A DNA stretch of 62,464 nt, filler included, from Stramenopiles sp. TOSAG23-6 (lineage: Eukaryota), in assembly GCA_900128565.1 (NCBI GenBank). It is 25 parts of 25 records of this genome, joined end to end, with 100 filler letters (N's around TTAATTAATTAA, not from the genome) between each part and the next. Parts side by side here need not be neighbours in the genome. Positions count along the whole stretch, not along the records: positions 35,149 to 37,548 come from LT638070.1; 24 more parts are not named here. One strand, written 5' to 3'. The notes beneath the pieces are model-generated. The model did no database searches and had not been told where the DNA came from. It saw only the letters and a list, made by a program, of their open reading frames with translations. The translations under genes and the position numbers were made by a program. Positions 2,527 to 60,162 of the stretch are shown here, in pieces (position 1 is the first letter of the stretch; each line of letters opens with the position of its first letter).

Positions 2527-3355
2527 TATTTTTGTATAGATATTTTTGTATAGATATTTGTAGTATTATTATTTGTAGTATTATTATTTGTAGTATAGAT
2601 ATTTTTGTATAGATATTTGTAGTATAGATATTTTTGTATAGATATTTTTGTATAGACATTTTTGTATAGATATTTGTAGTATTATTATTTGTAGTATAGA
2701 TATTTTTTATCTCCTTTTTGCACTGTGTGTAGGTGTGCTGCGGGGGGGTAATTTGTGGGTTTGGATTAGGGTTGTTGTTTCTTGAGGATTTGATATTTAT
2801 GGTGTATTATTAATAGTATAATAATATATAATACTGTAGTGGTGATGTTGTATACTAGTATTGAGATATTATTATACGGGTATAATTGATATAGTAGTGT
2901 AATATAGATATATTTTAAGACTATGCTTTGAAGTTTTAATATGTTGAATAATTCATTGTACTATTGAACATTTTTAGTATAGGCTGGTTATTTTTATTTA
3001 CAACAGATGTGTATTATTTGCACCATTTAACTATAAATTTCTACAAAGTTAAAAATTTTGAAATTCGGGTGAAAGTAAACTGATATTGGAGTGTTTTGAT
3101 AAATCAAGTACCAAGTGAAAAATTTGAGGTAAAATCGGAGTGGGGAAATCCTTGTTTTATTTTTGTTAAGTAGAAAANTTNGTATGAAAAAAAAAANTNA
3201 NCAANTNGAANCATTCTGAAATGTATTTTGTTGTGTACTTACAACCATCTCGGAACAAACATTATGCTGCTATATTTAGAGATTTTTTAACACTACAAAC
3301 TCAACCACAACCACAACCATTCTTCCGACGACGACGTATTTTACCAGATAGTTTG

Positions 3356-4952
3356 TTATCTTCCAAGTGCAATTGTGTAAGATTTTTTAATTGACCAACC
3401 AGATAAGTTGTTGTTATTCAAGTTCAAATATTCAAGATTTTTTAATTGACCAATTTGCTTTGGAATTGGACCAGATAGTTCGTTGAATATCAAGTTCAAA
3501 GCTGTAAGGTTTGTTAGTTGACCAATTTCCTTTGGTATTGAACCAGATAGGTTGTTGCGGTACAAACACAAATGTTCAAGATTTTTTAGTTGACCAATTT
3601 CACTCGGAATTGAACCAGATAGATTGTTGTTGAACAACCACAGATTTTCGAGCTTTGTTAGTTGACCAATTTCAGTTGAAATTGAACCAGATAGTTCGTT
3701 GTTGTTCAACCACAACTTTTCGAGTTTTGATAATTTACCAATTTCCTTTGGTATTGAACCACATAGTTGGTTGCCTGGCAAGTACAAATCTTTGAGATTT
3801 GTTAGTTGACCAATTTCACTTGGTATTTCACCAGATAGGTTGTTGTTAGACAAGTACAAAATTTTGAGATTTGTTACTTGACCAATTTCCGTTGGTATTG
3901 AACCAGATAGTGTGTTGCTGTACAACCACAAATGTTCAAGATTTTTTAGTTGACCAATTTCACTCGGAATTGCACCAGATAGNTGGTTGTAGTCCAAGTG
4001 CAATTTTTCGAGTTTTGTTAGTTGACCAATTTCCGTTGGTATTGCACCAGAATGGATGTTGCCTTCCAAGATCAATCCTTTTAGCTTTTCTAGTTGACCA
4101 ATTTCCGTTGGTATTGAACCAGATAGTTCGTTGTCATACAAGTACAATCCTTCGAGATTTGTTAGTTGACCAATTTCCGTTGGTATTGAACCAGATAGGT
4201 TGTTTTTTGACAAATTTAATTTAGTAACACTTTCTTCAGTACACCCGACTCCATACCATGTACAAATATTCGTATTTGTGTTCCAATTTGTATTAACCGA
4301 CCAATTATCTCCATTTGTATTGATATACAACGCAGTCAAAGCTTCCCTTTCCAATAGCCGCAATAATGTGCTTTCTATACGGTTTAACCAAACATCACGG
4401 CTTTCGTTTTCTTTCTTTGTAAGAGTGTTTGTTTCTGCTTTGAAGTAATTAGAAGTTCGAGCAATCATTTTTTCAATTCTTTGTATACGATATAACATTT
4501 CTAATGAAGTTTCGCTTTCTGTGTTTTCAGAAGAATCTTTTATTTGTTCTTCAGCAGTGTATCGTCCAATTTCTCTGGCAAATTTCGTAATCATTGATTC
4601 AGCATTGTCACTGACTAGCTCATACATCTCTTTATTTATAGCGGAAAGAGATACCATATCAGGTACAGAAAGAAAACGAGTTAAAAATTCTACTGAATAC
4701 ATAATATTCGTCAAAGTCGGACTTTCTCCATCCACTTCTTCAGGGGTAAAAACGGTTGCGTCCGTTTCATTTAACTCTTCCATGGCAGGTTTTCGAAAAG
4801 TTTCGGAAGTAGCGGCTTTGAAAATAATTGATGATTCTGGTTCTGGTTCTGGTTGTTGAGATTGAGTTTTTTCATCCATTTCTTTAGCCTTCCACGCAGC
4901 CTTAATGATTCGCGCACCAGCCCGACGTTCCTCCTCTTCCGCAGCCGCCGCA
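3356..4952 (-). CDS. Duplicate of the LRR gene in contig 1
   Basis: Contig 2527-4952 repeats contig 1, including the positions of ambiguous bases. Confidence 0.85.
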
Positions 4953-5052
4953 NNNNNNNNNNNNNNNNNNNNNNNNNNNNNNNNNNNNNNNNNNNNTTAA
5001 TTAATTAANNNNNNNNNNNNNNNNNNNNNNNNNNNNNNNNNNNNNNNNNNNN

Positions 5053-7473
5053 TGATCAAAAATGTACGGAGTGTAATAGCAACAATACACTTGAAAGTAA
5101 TGGAACATGTACATGTAAACCTGGTTTCTACAAAGATGGCGATGCATGCAAAGAATGTACTTCACAGAAGGGAACTACCTTTGATGGTAACATGGCTGAT
5201 AAACCATGTATTTATGGAGGATTAGACGTTGGAGTTGGGTTACCTAATAATGCAAAGAAAGTTGAAGCAGGTGTACTAACATCTGTTCCAGTGTACTATG
5301 CGAATGAAGCATGACTCCCATGGATCAAAAATATGCAAGGTGAAGAGTACTAACGATAATCCTTGGCCTAATTTAGGGGCAGGGAATATAGTTTGCACGA
5401 CGCCAACGCTGATACCACTATATCATAATATGATTATTTTCAAGCTAAATGGAGCCAAGACTAAAAGAAAATCACAAGGACACCATGCCAATTATTACAA
5501 AGATCAAGATGGTTTACTGCATTTATGTGGGTATTGCTCAAAAGGTTATGAAAGTAGCAGTTCATGTCCCGAAAAAGAGGGAGGTTGTACAAAATGTTCC
5601 ATCGGGAAATATCAGGACAGTGTGGATAGAAAAGTAAGCTGCAAAGCATGTTCTACAGTTGATGATTGTGCTGATGATAAAACTACATGTACTACAGGAA
5701 GCGACTCGACGTGCATTGAATGCTCAACAGGTTTCCACGTAAGCTTCTCCTCGGATACGTGTTCAAGGACGTGTAGTACGACATACAATGGCAATGGCGA
5801 AGTAATTGACGGTGCCACTGGTAAATATGTAGGGACCCAGGGAGATGTTGATGAGCTCTGTGTTCGTACGTTTTCAAGGACAAGTTATGGTCACGATTGT
5901 AAGCCTGCAAATGCTTTTGCATGTGGGAGTGGTTATGTAAAATGTCGAAACCGCGACAGATCAACACAAAGTTGCACCGCCTGTGCACCTGTTGCCGGTT
6001 GTAAAGCAGGTAAAACAATATGCTCTGACAAGAATAGTTCAGAGTGTACTGAGTGTGATGATAATATGTCTGGTACTGATTGTGCATGCATTGCAGGCTT
6101 CTACAAAGATGGAAATACGTGTAAAGCATGTAAAGCTCTTACAAACTGTGGTGTTGGGCACCTTTCATGTACCAACAGCAACGATTCAAAATGTGGCGAT
6201 TGTGCGGATGGTTATTTTGAGCATAGTGATGGTAGCTGTGATCTATGTACCGCTGTTCCTGGTTGTGCTGCTGGAAAAACAACTTGTACGAATGATCAGG
6301 ATCAAAAATGTACTGAGTGTAATAGCAACAGTACACTTGAAAATAATGGAACATGTACATGTAAACTTGGATTCTATGACACGGATTGTAGTAAAACATG
6401 TGGAGATGTCAGTGGTTGCAAAGATGGAAAAACAACATGTACAAATGACCAGGACCAAAAATGCAATAAATGTGCTGATGCAAATGCGGATGTTACGTAC
6501 AAATGTATGACTGGTTCTGTATGGAAGGCGATACCCGGATGGAACGGCAATCCTGCCCAACAGAAAGTGGCTTNNNNNNNNNNNNNNNNNNNNNNNNNNN
6601 NNNNNNNNNNNNNNNNNNNNNNNNNNNNNNNNNNNNNNNNNNNNNNNNNNNNNNNNNNNNNNNNNNGTGTACATGCAAAGATGGATTCTACGTTGATGGA
6701 GAGACTTGTAAACAATGTACAGCTATCCCTGGGTGTGATTCTGATAACATCACTTGTTCATCATCAAGTGGACAAAAATGTTCATCCTGTACGGACTCCA
6801 AAGCAACGGGTGATACATGTCAAAATTGTCCTGCCGAGTATTATAATGAAGCAGGTGAATGTAAACAGTGTACTACTATTCAAGGTTGTAAGGCTGGAAA
6901 AACGACGTGTACGAATCAAAATGATCAAAAATGTAGCGAATGTTCANNNNNNNNNNNNNNNNNNNNNNNNNNNNNNNNNNNNNNNNNNNNNNNNNNNNNN
7001 NNNNNNNNNNNNNNNNTTCTTGTACTGCTGCATACTACAAAGGATTTGCAACAGGCGTATGTACTAAAAAGTGCAGTGCAACGTACTCTGGAAACGGGGC
7101 TACAAAACATGGTATCAATGGTAAATACAATAACGGTGCATCCGATTCTGATAAAAATATTTGCGTTCGTAAAAATTATGATTCTAATTTCGGATTCTAT
7201 TGTATCAAAGCATCCCCAAATTGCCCTTCTGATTTTACAAAATGTGAAAATCAAGCTTCAGCTGCGCAAACGTGCAACAGCTGTACACCTGTTCCGGCGT
7301 GTAAACAAGACAAAACAATATGTACAACCGGCAGTAATGAAACATGTACTGAGTGTAATAGCAACAGTACACTTGAAAGTAATGGAACATGTGCATGTAA
7401 ACTTGGATTCTATGACAGTGACTGTAGTAAAACATGTACTGCTGTTCCTGGTTGTGCTGCTGGAAAAACAACT
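5053..7473 (+). CDS. Large cysteine-rich repeat (furin/TNFR/VSP-like) surface protein, internal fragment with gaps and a frame break near 5300
   Basis: Recurrent CxxC, CxCxxGFY and GKTTCTNDQDQKCTEC modules across ORFs 5298, 6503 and 6940. An upstream frame from 5054 stops near 5312. Confidence 0.8.
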
Positions 7474-7575
7474 NNNNNNNNNNNNNNNNNNNNNNNNNNN
7501 NNNNNNNNNNNNNNNNNTTAATTAATTAANNNNNNNNNNNNNNNNNNNNNNNNNNNNNNNNNNNNNNNNNNNNAC

Positions 7576-8598
7576 CTAACAATTTTTTTTTAAATTTTCT
7601 TTCAAATAATGTTGTTTCTCTGATATAGATTTTGGTGAGTAATTGATACCAGGAACATTAAAGTGGTCAAATCTTCCGATACGCAATAGCGGTGATGATT
7701 CATCTATTTCGTGTATTATTGGGGATGGGATATTAAGTAAAAGATGGTTTTCTTGTGGCGTAGTTATCTTCAAATTACTATATTGTAAATATTTCATTTC
7801 AGATTTTAAATTTTTTGCATCTCGAATTAAATACAAGTATACTTCTGCTTGAATGAGTGCCTTTCGTCTCAAGTCTAAAACCTGGATGACAAAATATAGC
7901 TTCCCACGATGTTCTCTAATAATAGCTCTATCACTAAATATAATAGATAAATCACGACTTGTACCATTTGATAACTGTGCGCATATTATCCCAAATAATA
8001 CTGCATCTAAAAGAGTGTACTGTGAAAAAATATGTTAAATTTTAGTGTTTTGTTAGCTTAGTATGTACAAATTTTAGTATGAAAAAAAGTATTTTAATTT
8101 TTTAATGTAAATAACGTACATTCCCAATAGACTTTGAAACATAATTAACATTGCCGGTTCCCAGCAATGACCAAAGTTTGGGTCATCTACGCCATACCCG
8201 ATAGTCATCATTGTTATGAGCGAGAAATAGTATGCTTCAAGTATGTTGTTGACGTTGATGCTACATTTTTCTGATAGATAAAGGTAAACTATGGCAAATA
8301 GTATCATTACAATGTTATACACGACTAAACAAACAACAAGAGTACTGAAAACACCTTTATCAGAAATAGTATGATACCAATCTTGATATTGAAAGTTCTG
8401 AGTCGTATTTTTATGTTGGAGGTTAAAATGTTTGTTACTTTGCTTCGAAGAACGATTCCGGCTAAGAAATCGCGTGACGCCGTCATCAATTGGAACTGTT
8501 TGCATTGAATCATAAGAATTTTGCTGGGAGCTTGAAGGTTGCACCAGATAAGTCGTATCATGATCTTCAAAACTTCTAATTCTTCCTCTTGTACTCAT
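7576..8598 (-). CDS. Inward-rectifier K+ channel (Kir); exons 8598-8120 and 8014 to about 7600; 3' partial
   Basis: TIGYG filter, QSLLG|ILLDAVLFG...IIFSDRAII and IIHEIDESSPL motifs. The intron is 8015-8119. Confidence 0.9.
8015..8119 (-). other. Non-canonical intron, GT-AC (AT-AC if shifted 2 nt)
   Basis: Removal restores Kir TM2 as QSLLGILLDA. The nearby CAG would cause a frameshift. Confidence 0.75.
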
Positions 8599-8908
8599 TT
8601 TAACTTATTTGTTACAGCTAAATAATTTATATAAGTTGTTGTAATGATGTTGTTGTTTTGAACTAAAAAATGGGTAATAATAATACGAGGTAATGTGTGA
8701 AGGTAGTGAAAACTGAAAAGAACCGGAACGAAAAAAAAATTTTAAATTTCAAAATTTTTTAAAAATTTCGGAATTCAAATCTAAATCTAAATCAAATCGA
8801 AATCTATCCATAAATAAATAAAACACGAAATAGTTACAAATCAAATCGAAATATAAACTATTTCGTATTACATTACATTTATTATAAAAAGCCTATATAA
8901 CTAAACGA

Positions 8909-9992
8909 CTATTTGTTTGTATTTTTTAATTTTTCAGCATTTACTCTTTGTACTGCATCATTCGTTGCAGTAAATAATTCAGTGTCTTCAGCATTTAGCC
9001 TCCGAATCTCCTTTTGAAACATAACAAAATAAGGTAGTGCATTTTGAACCATATCAAATTCAGGATCAAGTTGGCGAATCAAACCTTCTGATATACTAAT
9101 AGTAACTAACGAAGATGCTACATCTCCTTTCAAGCGAACATTATGCTTATGTAAATTAAATAATAGTTCGCCCATCAAATCACCAACTGAAATAGGACCC
9201 CCATCAGGTGCACAGGTACCCGACGGGCCAACCCAATGAGATGCAATTTCCTTTATATCTTTCTCAAGAGCTAAAACATCAATCGGATCCTCAGTACCTT
9301 CAATCTTTTCACTAAATTGCACAAGTCGATTAGCCATTCCAGCAGCATCACCAGTACACATTGCATATAAAAATCCCATGAATGGGGCACGCATTTCATC
9401 TGATAATGATGTTGTCACACCAGCATCAATAACAGTAAGTGTCATGTGATCAGGATTCTCATTAAAAAGTAAATTACCTGCGTGTAAGTCTCCATGCACA
9501 AGATTATCCCGAATCATCATTTTAATATTCACATCAAAAATTATACGCGCCAATTGTTGTTGTTTGGCTTTCAACTTACTAGACGTCATATCTTGCACAG
9601 TTTTAAATGCGGTTTTGATAACTTCNNNNNNNNNNNNNNNNNNNNNNNNNNNNNNNNNNNNNNNNNNNNNNNNNNNNNNNNNNNNNNNNNNNNNNNNNNN
9701 NNNNNNNNNNNNNNNNNNTTTCTTCATTGTTTCAATTGTTTCATCAACAGCGAGGGATTTCTTCATTGTTTCAATTGTTTCATCAACAGCTTTACCGGAT
9801 TTCTTCATTGTTTCAATTGTTTCATCAACAGCTTTACTTACGGCCTGTTCCACACGAGACCAACCCTCAGTCACTACCTCAAATATATTGGCAACCGATC
9901 GAGCATCACACCAAGACTCGACTAATACGGTAGATGATAATAACTCTGGTGATACTTCAGGGAAGTATACTTCACCCGCTTCGAATTTTTTG
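8909..9992 (-). CDS. ABC1/ADCK atypical kinase, C-terminal part (5' partial)
   Basis: KMMIRDNLVHGDLHAGNLL, IDAG and EGLIRQLDPEFD motifs. Confidence 0.88.
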
Positions 9993-24191: not shown

Positions 24192-24955
24192 ATGGCAATT
24201 AATAATAAAAAGAGAAAACACCCAACAAGGATGTCATATTTCCGGCGTTCATTGACTGCATGTATTGCTATACCTTTTTTGTTATTTATATTCTCATCGA
24301 GTCGAAGGGTTTTATTATTATCGATAAGTCTATCTTTCTGGGGTACTATAGAATGGGAACGTTTGCGAAGTGCCATCATTCGCCAGCTTGTAGAAAGTCT
24401 TGGTATGCACATGAATTATCCTACACCAACAAACTGTGATATTTTAGCTTTATTTTCTTCAACAGTGTGTGCTATTGTATGGTATATACCTAATTGGTTA
24501 ATCATGTATCAGGTGAATAGTATTGTTGTTGCGATTATTATAGTCCTACACGTGAGGCAGTGGATCAACTTTAGAATTGTACAAAGAGGGCCAAAGAAAA
24601 CTGCGATAAAGTCACGCAATTTATTTGTGTACAGTATATGCATCATGGCGATTGATATTTTTGGTATACTATACATACCTTTTTCAATATCGCACATTGT
24701 CTTATTATATTCTGATCCACAATTAGGTGAAAGTGGCATGTATGATTTATTTTTTTCAATTTCGATTTTATTTTTCGTACGAAATTTTGTACCTAACGAT
24801 TTTTTTTCGAAATATTTTTCCAAACTACATGGGTAATTTGATTCTTTTAATTACTTTTGTTTTTCAATGTGATAACGGAGCTCTTTTCGCTGGGCGACTA
24901 TACGGTCAACATAAACTTGCTAAATCATTATCACCTGGTAAAACATGGGAAGGTT
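24192..24955 (+). CDS. Phosphatidate cytidylyltransferase (CdsA-like); exons 24192-24739 and 24831-24955; 3' partial
   Basis: CDNGALFAGRLYGQHKLAKSLSPGKTWEG signature and TM helices. Confidence 0.9.
24740..24830 (+). other. Non-canonical intron, GT-AT, near-consensus copy (91 nt)
   Basis: GGCAT|GTATG...TTCGTACGAAATTTTGTACCTAAC...CCAAACTACAT|GGGT. There is no AG in the intron. Confidence 0.88.
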
Positions 24956-26501: not shown

Positions 26502-27376
26502 GAAAAAAAAAAAATTGTACCTAACAATTTTTTTAGATTTTTTTTGAAATATTTTTCCAAAATACATGATTGTAATACAATTCATTCAGAGACTCATGGA
26601 ATCTCATTTCAAACCTATTCAAAATATATTACGACAACAACCTAAAAACACAATATCGATAAATATAATCAGCTCCCTTTCAGAGTATGTGAAACAATTT
26701 CAACAATATTTGACTATAAAAAAACAACTCCATACAGAGGAAAGCAACGTCTTGATTTCTTTGTTTTCATGTTTGATTGAATCAGTACAGGGTCCATGTG
26801 AGGAAAATCAAGAGTTCATTGCTTTGAATACAGAACTTTTGGATTCTTGTAATAAAATTTTACATCTTCAATTGAGTCATATCCGAGCACCAAATACATG
26901 TAATGCTGGTGATGAAACGTTTTCAAATTTACAAATCAGTATCATCGATCTATTGATGGGTATCATTGAAGGTCGAAATGATAATGTAGTACATTCCATG
27001 ATACTTGGTGTGATTGATGTATTGTACTTACTCGAGCATCTCAAAAGTCTTCGAGTGTACCTACGTAAACATGTATGTTTTTTTTTTTTATTTTTTTTTT
27101 AATAGTAAATTTCGTACCTAACAAGTTTTTTTTTTTTTTTTTTTGAAATATTTTTCCAAAATACATACCACATCAACGAATCGATTTCGTGTATATCAAT
27201 TAAGTAGTGGTACATTAATGTCATCAAGTGTAGATGACAAACGTAGAGATAAGTTAGTTTTTCAACAAGGAATATCCATGACGGCATTCATACTCACTCT
27301 TGGTGATTTTGATAAAGTTTGGTTTTCAAAAAACACAGGAGCAATATCTAAGAGGCCACGAAGTTTCACCTCATAA
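25235..27376 (+). CDS. IP3 receptor/ryanodine receptor-like channel fragment (RIH-associated domain); introns include 25832-25952 and 27073-27166
   Basis: FIQRLMESHFKPIQNILRQQ...LIESVQGPCEENQ matches the RIH_assoc pattern. Confidence 0.85.
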
Positions 27377-27453: not shown

Positions 27454-27763
27454 ATGTATTTTGGAAAAATATTTCAAAAAAATATTTTGAAAATTTGTTA
27501 GGTACAAAATTTACTATTAAAAAAAAAATAAAAAAAAAAACATNNNNNNNNNNNNNNNNNNNNNNNNNNNNNNNNNNNNNNNNNNNNTTAATTAATTAAN
27601 NNNNNNNNNNNNNNNNNNNNNNNNNNNNNNNNNNNNNNNNNNNAAATATTTTTTTTTTAGTATTTTTTTTGTTAGGTGCAAAATTTCATACAAAAAAAAA
27701 AACTCATCGATGGTGTTTCTTTATTTTTATTTTCTAAAATCAATTTTAAATTATCCAGGAATT

Positions 27764-35048: not shown

Positions 35049-35204
35049 NNNNNNNNNNNNNNNNNNNNNNNNNNNNNNNNNNNNNNNNNNNNTTAATTAA
35101 TTAANNNNNNNNNNNNNNNNNNNNNNNNNNNNNNNNNNNNNNNNNNNNATTTTGTACCTAACAAATTTAAGTTTTTTTTTTTGAAATATTTTTCCAAAAT
35201 ACAT

Positions 35205-35698
35205 GTCTACTTGTCTTACACAAACAAAACAAACAAAACAAACATAAAAAACATAAAAAACATAAAAAATCAACTCATATGCATAGAGATACAGATACTC
35301 CTAATACTCCTAATACACCTTATACAGATTCAGATAGTGAATTTTCTTGTGATAGTGACGATGATATTCATATAACACGAAATAAAGCATTTCGAGATAA
35401 GCAAAATAATGAATATATGGAGTGTGCTCAAAACGAATATACGTTTTATTTTTTTTTTCACAAAAAAATTGATTTTTTTTTTTCAAAAAATTTTGTACCT
35501 AATGATTTTTTTTTTTGAAATATTTTTCCAAAACGAATGGAGCTCAATTTCAGAATTATGTCTTTTATCTGAAACATTACAGTTATTAAAGGCGGGTGGA
35601 AATCATCAAAAACATCAACAAAAACATGAAAATACTCAAAATGGAACTGTACCGACAACAATTGATATAAATGAAATCAAGTTTGTTATTAAGGATAT
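35205..35698 (+). CDS. Internal exons of an unknown protein (35205-35438 and 35539-35698)
   Basis: Open frame across the AT-AT intron 35439-35538. Confidence 0.6.
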
Positions 35699-35782
35699 GT
35701 ATGTTTATTTTCTTATTTTTTTTAAATATGAAATTGATTTTTTATTTTTTTTTTTTTTTTTTTTTAAAAAATTTTTTTCCCA

Positions 35783-35831
<49 letters not shown>

Positions 35832-35887
35832 ATACACATTGTATACCTAACAATACTTTTTACTTTTTTTTTTTGTTCATCATACAT

Positions 35888-36583
35888 GTATGGAGAGGTA
35901 TACCATTAGATATGGCACAATATGAAAAAATGTTTGGATCTAGTAGAATTGCTCACAGTAATGCAGATGTATATTTTTAATATTTCCAAATTTGTTTTTC
36001 ATAGTAAATTTCGTACCTAACAATTTTTTTTTTTTTTTTTTTTAACATTTCCAATTTTTTTTTTCATAGTAAATTTCGTACCTAACAAAAATTTTTTTTT
36101 TTTTTTTTTNTCACAGTACATGAATTAGTTACCTTTTCACATGAGGATTCTCGTCATATTGCAATCATGTCAAAAGGTAAAATTTATTACTTTACTGTTC
36201 TTAATTCGGATGATAGAGTTGGAATTTCTGAATCTGATTTGGCTTCAAATTTTTGTGCAATTGTAAAAAATTCAAAAAGCCCTAACCCTAAGGATACTAT
36301 AAATAACCCTAACCCTAATGATACGGTAGGTGTCTTGACAACATTACCTAGAAGTCGTTGGGCCATCAATAGATCAAATATTTCTAGCTTATCAAAAACA
36401 AACGCTGAATGTTTACGTATAGTAAGTTTTTTTTTTTTTTTTTTTTNTAGTACATTTTTTTAGAAAAAAAAAAAAAATTATATGAAAATTTTATATGAAA
36501 TTTTTTTTTTAGAAAACAAAAAATAATATTGAATGACATATTTTTTTTTTTTTTTTTTTTTTTTTTTATACAAAATTTTTTAC

Positions 36584-36618
<35 letters not shown>

Positions 36619-36660
36619 TTTTTTTTTTTTTTAAAAAAAATTTTAAACGAAATTTTTTAC

Positions 36661-36695
<35 letters not shown>

Positions 36696-36955
36696 TTTTA
36701 CAAAATATATCCAGATAAACATCCAAATGATCGAGAAGCTGCAAATGAAGTGTTTGTACGTATTAATCAAGCATATGAAATTCTATCCAATCCAAAAGCT
36801 AGAGCAAGATATGATAAGGGAACAGGACCTAGAAGTACATCAAAATTTCATTTTGAATATCAAAAATGGCAAGCAGAGCAATGGCAAAAAGAGCAACAGA
36901 TGAAGTATGTTTTTTTTTTTTTTTTTTTCATACGAAATTTTGTACCTAAAAAAAA

Positions 36956-36986
<31 letters not shown>

Positions 36987-37453
36987 TTCATACGAAATTT
37001 TGTACCTAAACAAAAAATAATATTGAATGACATATTTTTCATACTATAGGTAGATAGTGCACTTTTTATTGTATGCTTAGATGATCATTCACCAAGTGTA
37101 GCATCTGACTTGGCATCATCAGCTTTACATGGTACATATACGTTGACATTATTAAAATTATATTTGTATAATTTTTTTTTCATAGATTTTTGAACTACAA
37201 AATTAAAAAAAAAATTTAAAAAAAAAAAAAAAAAATTAAAAAAAAAATTCATAGAAATTTCATAAAAAATTCCGTACCTAATATTTTTTTTTTTTTTGAA
37301 ATATTTTTTACATAACACATATCATTGATGAAAACAATACTCAAATAGGGACATGTATAAACCGCTGGTTTGATAAACTACAATTAATTATTTATGAAAA
37401 TGGAAAAAGTGCCGTAAATTTTGAGCATACTGCAGTAGATGGACATTCAGTAT
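35888..37453 (+). CDS. Carnitine/choline O-acyltransferase (YAT1-like); exons 35888-35968, 36122-36421, 37050-37137, 37319-37453
   Basis: PLDMAQYEKMFGSSRI, VDSALFIVCLDD, NRWFDKLQ and catalytic FEHTAVDGH motifs. Confidence 0.92.
36711..36904 (+). CDS. Isolated J-domain (DnaJ) exon
   Basis: PDKHPND...FVRINQAYEILSNPKARARYD, bounded by a family acceptor (AAAATATAT) and donor (GTATGTTTT). Confidence 0.8.
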
Positions 37454-37725
37454 GTACGTTTTCATTTCATTTCAATTTTTTTTTTTTTTTCTATTTTTTT
37501 TTTTCGTACGAAATTTTGTACCTAACAAAAAAAAAAAAAAAAAAAAAANNNNNNNNNNNNNNNNNNNNNNNNNNNNNNNNNNNNNNNNNNNNTTAATTAA
37601 TTAANNNNNNNNNNNNNNNNNNNNNNNNNNNNNNNNNNNNNNNNNNNNAATATATTTCAAAATTGAAAATGGGGTCGTAATTAGAAATAAAACTTTAAAA
37701 ATAAATGGGTTCAATATGTACGTAC

Positions 37726-42547: not shown

Positions 42548-42931
42548 NNNNNNNNNNNNNNNNNNNNNNNNNNNNNNNNNNNNNNNNNNNNTTAATTAAT
42601 TAANNNNNNNNNNNNNNNNNNNNNNNNNNNNNNNNNNNNNNNNNNNNGTACAAAATTTCGTATGAAAAAATAAATAAATTTGAAATTCATTATGAAAACG
42701 TAAAAAAACAAACTCAAAAAAAATCTTTTTTGTTTTTTTGTTTTTTTGTTTTTTTGTTTAGGTACAAAATTTCGTATGAAAAAATAAATAAATTTGAAAT
42801 TCATTATGAAAACGTAAAAAAACAAACTCAAAAAAAATCTTTTTTGTTTTTTTGTTTTTTTGTTTTTTTGTTTAGGTACAAAATTTCGTATGAAAAAATA
42901 AATAAATTTGAAATTCATTATGAAAACGTAC

Positions 42932-44553
42932 AGGGGGCACACAATGTAAAACTTCTTCAAATCTCTTGATAATGTCATTCGGAGAGATTGGGATGAAATG
43001 AATATTTTCATTGATGTGTAAGTCATTTTGATTATTTGTATACTTTTTTGTATTTTGATTATTTGTATACTTTTTTGTATTTTGATTATTTTTATAATTT
43101 TTTGTATTTTGATTATTTTTATAATTTTTTGTTTGAGGGTTAGGGTTAGAGTTAGGGCTGCTCTTGCCAACATTCGATTTCGAAATTGAATCTGGATCCA
43201 ACTGTAACGATTTCGTGCCTAGAGAATTTTGCTGATTTTTTCGATTTTTCCGTTTTGATGATTTTGAGGAGAGAACTGTTGTGAAAAAATATTTTTTTTT
43301 TCCGTAAAAAAAAATTTGTTAGGTACAAAATTTTGTACCAAAAAACAATATATCAAATTTAATTTTGAAAACGTACATGAACGGATGGAAGAAAGAGATT
43401 TTGACTTTGCAGGGAGAGATTGTTGTTCCACAGACATGCAATGTGTAGAAATATTAAACGAAAAAAATCAGTTAGGTACGAAATTTTGTAACGAAAAAAA
43501 AATAAAATTCATCATGAACCCTAACCCTAACGTACATAACACCAGTAATAAGTTCCATCTGAAGTTTTTCAATTTTGGAGAAAACCAAATCTCCACCAAA
43601 ATATTCAATGTATTTTGGGTAAATATTTCAAAACTGTACAATGCATTAGGTAAAAAATTTTTTTAGTAAAAAAAATGTAAAAAAAGGTAGGTATGAAATT
43701 TCGTATAAAACAATTTAAAATTTGAAATGAAACGTTAAAACATGCATACATTCTTTTTGAAGAGTTTTTAAAACGGCCAATTTTTCATTCTTTTTTTTCT
43801 GTTCAGTCTGTTCAGTAGTACATATTGTATTCAAGTCATTACATTTTGTATCGGTTTTTGTAGTAAACTCTGTATTAGGGTTATTAGGGTTATTAGGGTT
43901 AGGGTTATCCTGATCAACACATTCTAAGATATGTTTGTATTTATTAGAATTCCAAATCTCTTCGGTTTCATTCATAACTAAAATAGACCCTAACCCTATT
44001 GAATCTATATACTCTTTAGGGTTGGGTAGCATTTGTAATTTTGACGTACAATTTAATATTTCGTGCTTTTCCCGTCGAGCCATTCCAATGTCAGTGTATC
44101 TCTCTGCCAAAACAGTTTTATTCCATATCAAATGTTTGGAATCCAATTTTTTTTTTTTATTACTTTTTGTATTAAAATTATGACTTTTTTTACTATTACA
44201 CTCAAATTCTTCATTATAGAGCGACTTTGATGCACAATCTACAGTATCTCTTGCTTCCTCATCTTCAAACAATTCATAACCAAGACCAAGTTTTGACGCA
44301 ATAACATGTTGGAAAAAAAATATGTTGTAGACGTTGAAAAATTCGTTAGGTACAAAATTTCGTACGAAAAAAAAATTATAAATTTTAAATTCAATTAGGG
44401 TTAGGGTTATGTACACTTTGTAAACTAGAATCTTGAAGTAATGGTTCAAGTAAGTCCGAAGACCGATCTAATACAAGCATTGTTGCTCTATCATCATGAA
44501 ACCAAAATTCACTTGAATCTGCTATTTTTCCTTGTACGGATTCGTCAATTTGA
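42932..44553 (-). CDS. Sec1/Munc18-family protein, internal exons; introns 44306-44414 (GT-AT), 43608-43745 (GC-AT), 43436-43535 (GT-AT), 43276-43376 (GT-AG)
   Basis: ATMLVLDRSSDLLEPLLQDSSLQS resembles the Sec1 LLILDR..D...PLLH motif, and KIEKLQMELITG resembles LEQ.L.TG. Confidence 0.7.
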
Positions 44554-59980: not shown

Positions 59981-60162
59981 NNNNNNNNNNNNNNNNNNNN
60001 NNNNNNNNNNNNNNNNNNNNNNNNTTAATTAATTAANNNNNNNNNNNNNNNNNNNNNNNNNNNNNNNNNNNNNNNNNNNNTTTTTTTTCAATTTCGAATT
60101 TATTTTTCGTACGAAAATTTGTACCTAACGATTTTCTTTTGAAATATTTTTCCAAAGTACAT

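Follow-up and report, generated by a model that had tools for sequence, protein, structure and literature searches.

Why nearly all eukaryotes keep an AG at the very end of their introns is an open question, and the lineages that have abandoned it are few, namely larvacean tunicates, some dinoflagellates and euglenozoans. Among the larvaceans, non-canonical, transposon-derived introns were reportedly documented in Fritillaria borealis by Henriet et al. in 2019. The Fritillaria introns are described as transposon-derived, with AT or AC 3' ends that follow a Y-A-Y rule, and their U2-type removal was concluded (Soo et al. 2026, PMC13326754; PMC11282704). Introners are reported from Micromonas, Aureococcus, dinoflagellates (Polarella) and Amoebophrya (PMC9860276, PMC12130899, PMC11282704, PMC7789003), and a preprint on Physarum polycephalum describes an expansion of U12-type introns, the U12 donor being RTATCCTT (bioRxiv 10.1101/2020.10.12.336362). 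The intron analysed here (the target intron) is probably a copy of a transposon-like intron family, or 'introner', dispersed among the genes of a marine, AT-rich stramenopile, with a non-AG end set by the tail of the element itself.

The window, that is, the whole stretch of 62,464 nucleotides analysed, consists of about 25 separate contigs of roughly 2.4 kb each, sorted by length, separated by N44-TTAATTAATTAA-N44 linkers and rich in AT (GC content of 22-39%). The target intron lies on the contig at 35149-37548, and a second intron of the same kind, in a Kir channel gene, on the contig at 7574-9992. Positions 1-2426 and 2527-4952 agree in their ORFs, with a shift of 2526 bases, and in the placement of single Ns; this contig, which encodes an LRR protein, appears to be present twice. 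The best match to an ORF encoding Sof1, a EukProt entry named GSMAST32..., has 81% identity, with oomycetes next at 53-55%, and the best CPT homologue comes from the stramenopile Chrysoparadoxa. Judged by these best protein matches, which derive from two contigs (that of Sof1 being devoid of family introns), the host would be a stramenopile and not a tunicate. An origin from a larvacean tunicate was also considered, and was rejected on the same stramenopile matches.

The target intron interrupts a carnitine palmitoyltransferase-2 (CPT2)-like gene with Pfam Carn_acyltransf matches on four consecutive exons. Its features are the following (a slash marks a splice junction):

35888-35968, plus strand: upstream exon A, carnitine palmitoyltransferase-2-like (VWRGIPLDMAQYEKMFGSSRIAHSNAD); Pfam Carn_acyltransf positions 129-152, PDB 2h4t_A residues 179-202, homologue alignment
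35969-36121, plus strand: target intron, 153 nt, GAT/GTATATTTTT...TCACAGTACAT/GAA in the GT..AT register, with one N at 36110
35974-36109, plus strand: tandem duplication of the target intron core, 65-nt unit in 2.1 copies
36013-36021, plus strand: first branch-site-like GTACCTAAC of the target intron, from the motif scan
36078-36086, plus strand: second branch-site-like GTACCTAAC, its branch-like A 36 nt from the 3' end
36114-36116, plus strand: CAG predicted to be bypassed, with the inferred 3' splice site 5 nt downstream; a stop follows after 3 codons if it is used with the GT donor
36122-36421, plus strand: downstream exon B (ELVTFSHEDSRHIAIM...AECLRI); Pfam Carn_acyltransf positions 162-247, homologue alignments

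The sequences and coordinates quoted in the original prediction for the target and Kir introns are correct, and its central statement, that use of the CAG leads to a frameshift and a stop while the AT end yields NAD/ELVTF, agrees with both the translations and the CPT homologues. From the donor GAT/GTATAT, an end at the AT of 36121 gives RIAHSNAD/ELVTFSHEDSRHIAIM (translation ...SNADELVTFSHEDSRHIAIM), and the same donor joined to the CAG at 36114-36116 gives ...SNADYMN*. ATG is present at both junctions, so that four boundary registers (AT..AC, TG..CA, GT..AT and TA..TG) lead to an identical mRNA; none of them is AG-terminal. In nine CPT homologues of 30-43% identity, recovered from a representative protein library (best 43%), the junction falls within a conserved D-E-x-V-T-F motif, represented by sequences such as DDEHVTF, RDELVSS and KDKFVVF. 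The loop at the junction counts 9 residues with the AT end, as in 2/9 homologues, versus 7 in the other 7/9, and length alone therefore cannot fix the junction; the comparison of loop length with the solved CPT2 structure was likewise indecisive, and the Pfam coordinates left 2 profile positions without a residue. Protein searches with exon B returned no same-species match among proteins of similar length and none of significance among longer ones.

The Kir gene, encoded on the opposite strand, offers an intron of unambiguous register:

8120-8604, minus strand: upstream exon, pore and M2 helix, ending ...QSLLG plus 2 nt; Pfam IRK positions 73-123, 9mh8_A up to G180
8015-8119, minus strand: Kir intron, 105 nt, AAT/GTACGTTATT...CACAGTACAC/TCT, GT..AC, a diverged family member with a CAG at 8020-8022
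7579-8014, minus strand: downstream exon, LLDAVLFG..., IRK_C domain; Pfam IRK_C, 9mh8_A from residue 183 at query residue 2

Here too the reading frame favours the predicted bypass. The GT..AC translation reads ...QSLLGILLDAVLFG, while GT..CAG runs into a stop after 4 codons (...LLGITLF*). In the alignment to the solved GIRK2 chain 9mh8_A, upstream residue 161 corresponds to G180 and downstream residue 2 to residue 183; as downstream residue 1 aligns to 182, the split codon alone fills 181 and leaves no gap.

Both introns belong to a family with the pattern NAT/GTAYGTTTTA … GTACCTAAC – T-run – (GAAATATTTTT)CCAAAATACAT/G, found in at least 41 copies in the window, and with the fuller consensus NAT/GTATGTTTTATTTTTTTTC-AATTTCGAATTTATTTTT-CGTACGAAATTTT-GTACCTAAC-(G/A)A-T(n)-GAAATATTTTT-CCAAAATACAT/G; the usual length is 80-126 nt. 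Allowing at most one mismatch, GTACCTAAC occurs 72 times in the 62-kb window and GAAATATTTTT 58 times, versus 14.7 expected (0/100 shuffles reach 58), with 22/24 exact copies of the latter placed within family context. A set of 41 3' ends, chosen by eye from a raw motif scan (232 matches, 73 with the branch-like motif upstream) and including the end at 37049, which was added by hand, could be aligned nearly without gaps, and 21 introns were aligned from end to end. Their host genes comprise CPT2, Kir, DNA-PKcs, DENN, Erv1 and others. With the 5' end located by motif alone, family boundaries are frame-compatible in 20 of the 23 copies that have both ends on the contig, against an expectation of 1/3 (P = 1.6e-7), and in 17/19 where the flanking ORFs are clear on both sides; the frame is not kept at 35887, 43436 and 37049, the last when joined to the donor of a nested DnaJ exon. 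The family thus shows one attribute of introners, many near-identical copies acting as introns in unrelated genes.

The 3' ends depart from the AG of U2-type introns in 39/41 copies. The last three intron bases are CAT in 26, TAT in 7, TAG in 2 and CAC in 1, followed by AAT, CTT, CGT, GTT and TTT with one each, so that 34/41 are AT-terminal and 2/41 AG-terminal; A occupies position -2 in 37/41, and the first exon base is G in 28/41. An AG is found between the branch-like motif and the end in 14/41 copies, including the TTTTAG/A copies, where it lies about 31 nt upstream. The target and Kir introns are members of a TCACAAUACAU subfamily and have in common a G at -6. A third copy with AG at -5 ends at 60162 (CCAAAGTACAT), and copy 43274 has AG at -2. 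A metagenome scan with GTACCTAAC..TCACAGTACA yielded 24 loci, all of them unrelated chance matches, and no further CAG-bearing copies. This one window holds a natural mutational series, with AG at -5 or -2, ends in AC, AG or TT, and the upstream motif present or absent. One of the ends listed originally, CACAATATTT (38891, minus strand), could not be established, since an in-frame CAG lies 6 nt downstream.

Several structural peculiarities of the family introns were noted. The core has grown by internal tandem duplication that includes the branch-like motif at 35974-36109 (+), 36915-37039 and 42648-42930, with units of 65, 60 and 114 nt in 2.1-2.5 copies. Also, the core contains two perfect 12-nt palindromes, AAATTCGAATTT and TTTCGTACGAAA (e.g. 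24770-24790 (+)), and the 3' motif GAAATATTTC is palindromic as well; these palindromes might be protein-binding sites of the parent element. Two family copies, at 27114-27166 (+) and 27454-27505 (-), point towards each other across about 290 nt in which open frames of opposite strands overlap, and at least one of the two may not be an intron of a coding gene. Telomere-like blocks CCCTAACCCTA, with at most one mismatch, occur at 18 sites versus 0.17 expected (e.g. 36280-36290, 36307-36317, 43519-43529 and 44396-44406 (-)); two lie in a CPT coding exon, where they encode PNP repeats, and two in family introns, shortly downstream of the 5' end (GTACGTTAGGGTTAGGG, GTACATAACCCTAACCCTAA).

A GUAUGU or GUACGU donor, a UACCUAAC motif and a U-run constitute the classical U2-type set (yeast consensus). 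In the family, GTATGT, GTACGT or a close variant starts 21/21 aligned introns, with G at +5 in 15/21, a donor of the GTRNGT-like U2 type; the target starts GTATAT. GTACCTAAC followed by the U-run lies 33-50 nt from the end in 36/41 copies, the rest being four regex artefacts and one variant motif. This CTAAC motif with its pyrimidine tract matches what is expected of U2-type introns, and its A is a putative branch point; the distance to the end varies with the length of the U-run, and the end is thus not at a fixed distance from the branch-like site. AT precedes the donor in 21/21 aligned introns, a figure that is partly circular as the donor search motif included AT. At base -3 the two junctions match in 6/21 pairs, about the level given by base composition, and hence share no third base. 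Neither an empty insertion site nor an autonomous element was seen in the 62-kb window.

The neighboring introns of the CPT gene show how the end is placed when the tail differs. The target itself, a TCACA[A/G]TACAT subfamily member, lacks the GAAATATTTTT/GAAATATTTTTC motif and has a T-run in its place, and so does the preceding intron, which ends at 35887 before an exon start backed by homologues; both end in ...ACAT/. Further downstream are:

36422-37049, plus strand: next CPT intron, GTAAGT...CATACTATAG, one of the 2/41 AG ends, with 1 nt less between ATATTTTT and the end
36711-36904, plus strand: DnaJ-domain exon inside this intron (Pfam DnaJ positions 30-63, E = 1.8e-9), preceded by a family 3' end ...ACAAAATATAT/ and followed by a GTATGT donor

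The junction 36421/37050 is gap-free against 9/9 homologues and agrees with the local TATAG rather than with the family distance. The point at which one RNA contig stops had suggested a different donor, at 36417, but this was rejected, as it needs a gap against 9/9 homologues. The DnaJ exon, which is covered by RNA contigs, is out of frame with the CPT exon that follows; it may represent a nested gene, an alternative exon or a chimera of the assembly. Between CPT exons C and D, the intron at 37140-37322 (+) has no GT donor in phase with the family-aligned end ACACAT/, and a fit is obtained when both the GT donor and the end are moved 2 nt downstream, to GTTGAC and CATAT/; its tail carries a 1-nt insertion, which makes this copy a natural test of position versus local sequence.

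RNA evidence comes from Logan contigs of seawater metatranscriptomes, mapped to positions 35149-37548. No RNA contig within this interval bridges the target intron, and exon A is without cover; the bypass of the CAG is therefore deduced and not observed directly. One contig extends from exon B through the last 11 bases of the target intron, and must represent unspliced RNA or DNA. Two contigs of one sample start their exact match at 36711, directly after the family end ...ACAAAATATAT/ (...ATATAT/), with 18 and 22 more letters upstream, which fits splicing at the AT end. Another contig stops matching at 36416, 5 nt before the homology-backed donor, which counts against the favoured explanation. 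Summed depth over the intron module reaches 3066-9196 in three runs and 17.7 in a fourth, versus 1-7 on those unique exon bins that are covered, as would fit a very high copy number, although the summed depths may include other organisms.

Taken as an introner family, each copy would bring its own U2-type signals: a GUAUGU or GUACGU donor, the branch-like UACCUAAC, a U-run and a conserved tail of the form ...(GAAAUAUUUUU)C[C/A]A[A/C]A[A/G]UAC. At the very end of the intron, an AU would repeat the AU before the donor, and may represent a target-site duplication of 2 bp (AT). On this view the element itself would span GTAYG...ATAC, and the gene would be restored by its precise excision together with one AT. 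If the AT is indeed a target-site duplication, the frame is restored only by a cut exactly after the second AU. The spliceosome would accordingly be expected to pass over the AG 5 nt upstream and to use an A-N end, AU or more rarely AC or AG, that the element tail determines. The 2-bp AT repeat is short and palindromic, and could also reflect a splicing preference rather than a target-site duplication.

A wider reading is that the 3' splice site has been re-specified genome-wide from AG to A-U in this uncultured lineage of marine stramenopiles, driven by one transposon-like family whose AT target-site copy supplies the last two intron bases. We put it forward tentatively, as a real possibility that falls somewhat short of probable. 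Under such a re-specification, the acceptor would be chosen by the context of the tail (the U-run and about 10 A-rich bases, perhaps with pairing of the AUGUA/UACAU ends), and AG dinucleotides would be invisible to the second splicing step. It could account for poor gene prediction in such single-cell genomes.

One alternative is that the CAG is really used, either because the two copies are mis-spliced and their genes decaying, or because a shifted donor restores the frame. The last option, if seen in reads, is what the original prediction had named as grounds for abandoning it, and for Kir such a donor does exist: a GT 4 nt further in (GTTATT) is in frame with the CAG and gives LLGMYYTLLD. 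This product was rejected, since it places MYYT where the GT..AC product has I and so adds 3 residues to the inner helix, while the GT..AC product is exactly colinear with GIRK2. In the target, the four donors tested as in-frame partners of the CAG (AT, TA, AT and TT) are all non-GT, and their products gain 1-3 residues or lose the conserved D, which is kept in 8/9 homologues. Unspliced family copies are plentiful in the RNA libraries, as the module depths attest, in line with mis-splicing, but both genes are otherwise open and conserved. Use of the CAG is accordingly unlikely, and the bypass of the AG, as predicted from sequence, is well supported by homology.

How the end is chosen once the AG is passed over can be viewed in several ways. 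The original proposal takes the GAAAUAUUUUUC motif as the reference from which distance or local RNA structure defines the 3' splice site. The alignment on which it drew largely stands: spacing from ATATTTTT to the end is a constant 10-11 nt, and 38/41 rows are ungapped between the two. Also, UAU and AAU triplets lie upstream, in the motif and tail of every copy, and remain unused, so that a bare triplet rule is insufficient and some context borne by the tail must matter. But constant spacing is expected from the common descent of a transposon-like element and cannot by itself show measuring, the target and 35887 introns end as they do without the GAAATATTTTTC motif, and the 37049 copy keeps to its local end despite a spacing shorter by 1 nt. 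The GAAATATTTC motif is a palindrome, and a GAAA/UUUC hairpin with U4/A4, paired in 76.7% of cells, scores 0.116 for covariation vs 0.075 in shuffles (1/500 reach 0.116); yet this modest signal comes mostly from one pair, G-C vs A-U, by which two subfamilies differ, a pattern that may arise from descent alone. RNAalifold gave no consensus structure for the family. In single-sequence folds, AUGUA/UACAU closes the intron in 5/6 cases (z-scores -0.1 to -2.05) and is absent in the Kir copy; this terminal pairing is found in 14/15 scored rows, but comprises 5 bp only, 2 of them the flanking AT, and shows no covariation beyond shuffles. Folding and covariation, suggested at the outset as a check, thus leave RNA structure as a selector of the acceptor weakly supported at best. 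The part of the proposal that survives is that the acceptor is not the first AG, as borne out by homology at both junctions and by 39/41 non-AG ends; that it is measured from the motif seems improbable.

The minor spliceosome tolerates non-AG ends and locates the 3' site by its distance to the branch site, and a transformed version of it (U12-type) could splice the family with the TTCCAAAAT tail as branch site. This tail, at -13..-5, resembles the U12 branch motif TTCCTTRAC at about 6/9 positions, and position -9, an A, is the one column without variation across the 41 ends. The donor argues otherwise, since the family consensus GTATGTTTT, with GTATGT/GTACGT, G at +5 and a variable +4, is not the [G/A]TATCCTT of U12-type introns, and a long U-run and UACCUAAC lie upstream. 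An Rfam search of the 62-kb window returned no matches, and hence no minor-spliceosome snRNA, although a window this small says little. The U12-type expansion in Physarum offers a genuine competing model; taken together, we give this explanation little credence. Far less probable still is that the elements are removed from DNA, as are the internal eliminated sequences of ciliates, which short elements flanked by TA/AT and with inverted ends resemble in outline: the elements have a donor, a branch motif and a U-run, their modules abound in RNA libraries, and the best protein matches are to stramenopiles. We know of no such DNA elimination in stramenopiles. An introner family with its end set by the element tail remains the preferred explanation.

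In the literature searched, no report of such introns in this group was found, and term searches of two papers on marine stramenopile single-cell genomes revealed no discussion of non-canonical introns. The family is best read as a splice cassette carried by a transposon and lacking a terminal AG, for which, as far as found, there is no earlier description in this lineage. It would offer a clean substrate to address what positions the second splicing step, and gene finders bound to GT-AG would break most genes of such genomes.

The family resembles several known systems, each in part. With the nonconventional introns of euglenids (PMC11282704) it has in common non-GT/AG borders and a predicted pairing of the ends (AUGUA/UACAU in 5/6 folds), but it differs in its U-run and branch motif, and in an end pairing that is without covariation and absent from the Kir copy. 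The expansion in Physarum parallels it in massive intron gain, possibly through a transposon with a 2-bp duplication, in the occurrence of GT-AT introns and in a 3' end not bound to AG; its U12-type signals differ from the U2-like donor and branch motifs found here, with 33-50 nt between branch and end. Introners, as described in the papers cited above, occur mainly in marine hosts as hundreds to thousands of near-identical copies in unrelated genes, which recalls the present family, and their inverted ends and target-site duplications, which supply part of the splice site, have putative counterparts in it; most of those described there restore GT-AG, in contrast to the 2/41 AG ends reported here.

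A further likeness is to Fritillaria, whose introns also have AT or AC in place of AG at their 3' ends, a short direct repeat at the exon borders and a uridine-rich tract, and whose inverted ends have a putative counterpart here; the Y-A-Y rule holds for the last three bases of 34/41 copies here. However, the first bases are GT in 21/21 aligned introns, within a strong GTAYGT, whereas the major Fritillaria classes start with AG, and only 12/21 have a Y at -3 before the donor. Also, a single homogeneous family is found here, in a host that by best matches is a stramenopile and not a larvacean. A stramenopile with one young, homogeneous, AT-ending family would represent an independent case of AG abandonment and, if the change from AG to A-U holds genome-wide, an independent protist counterpart of Fritillaria.
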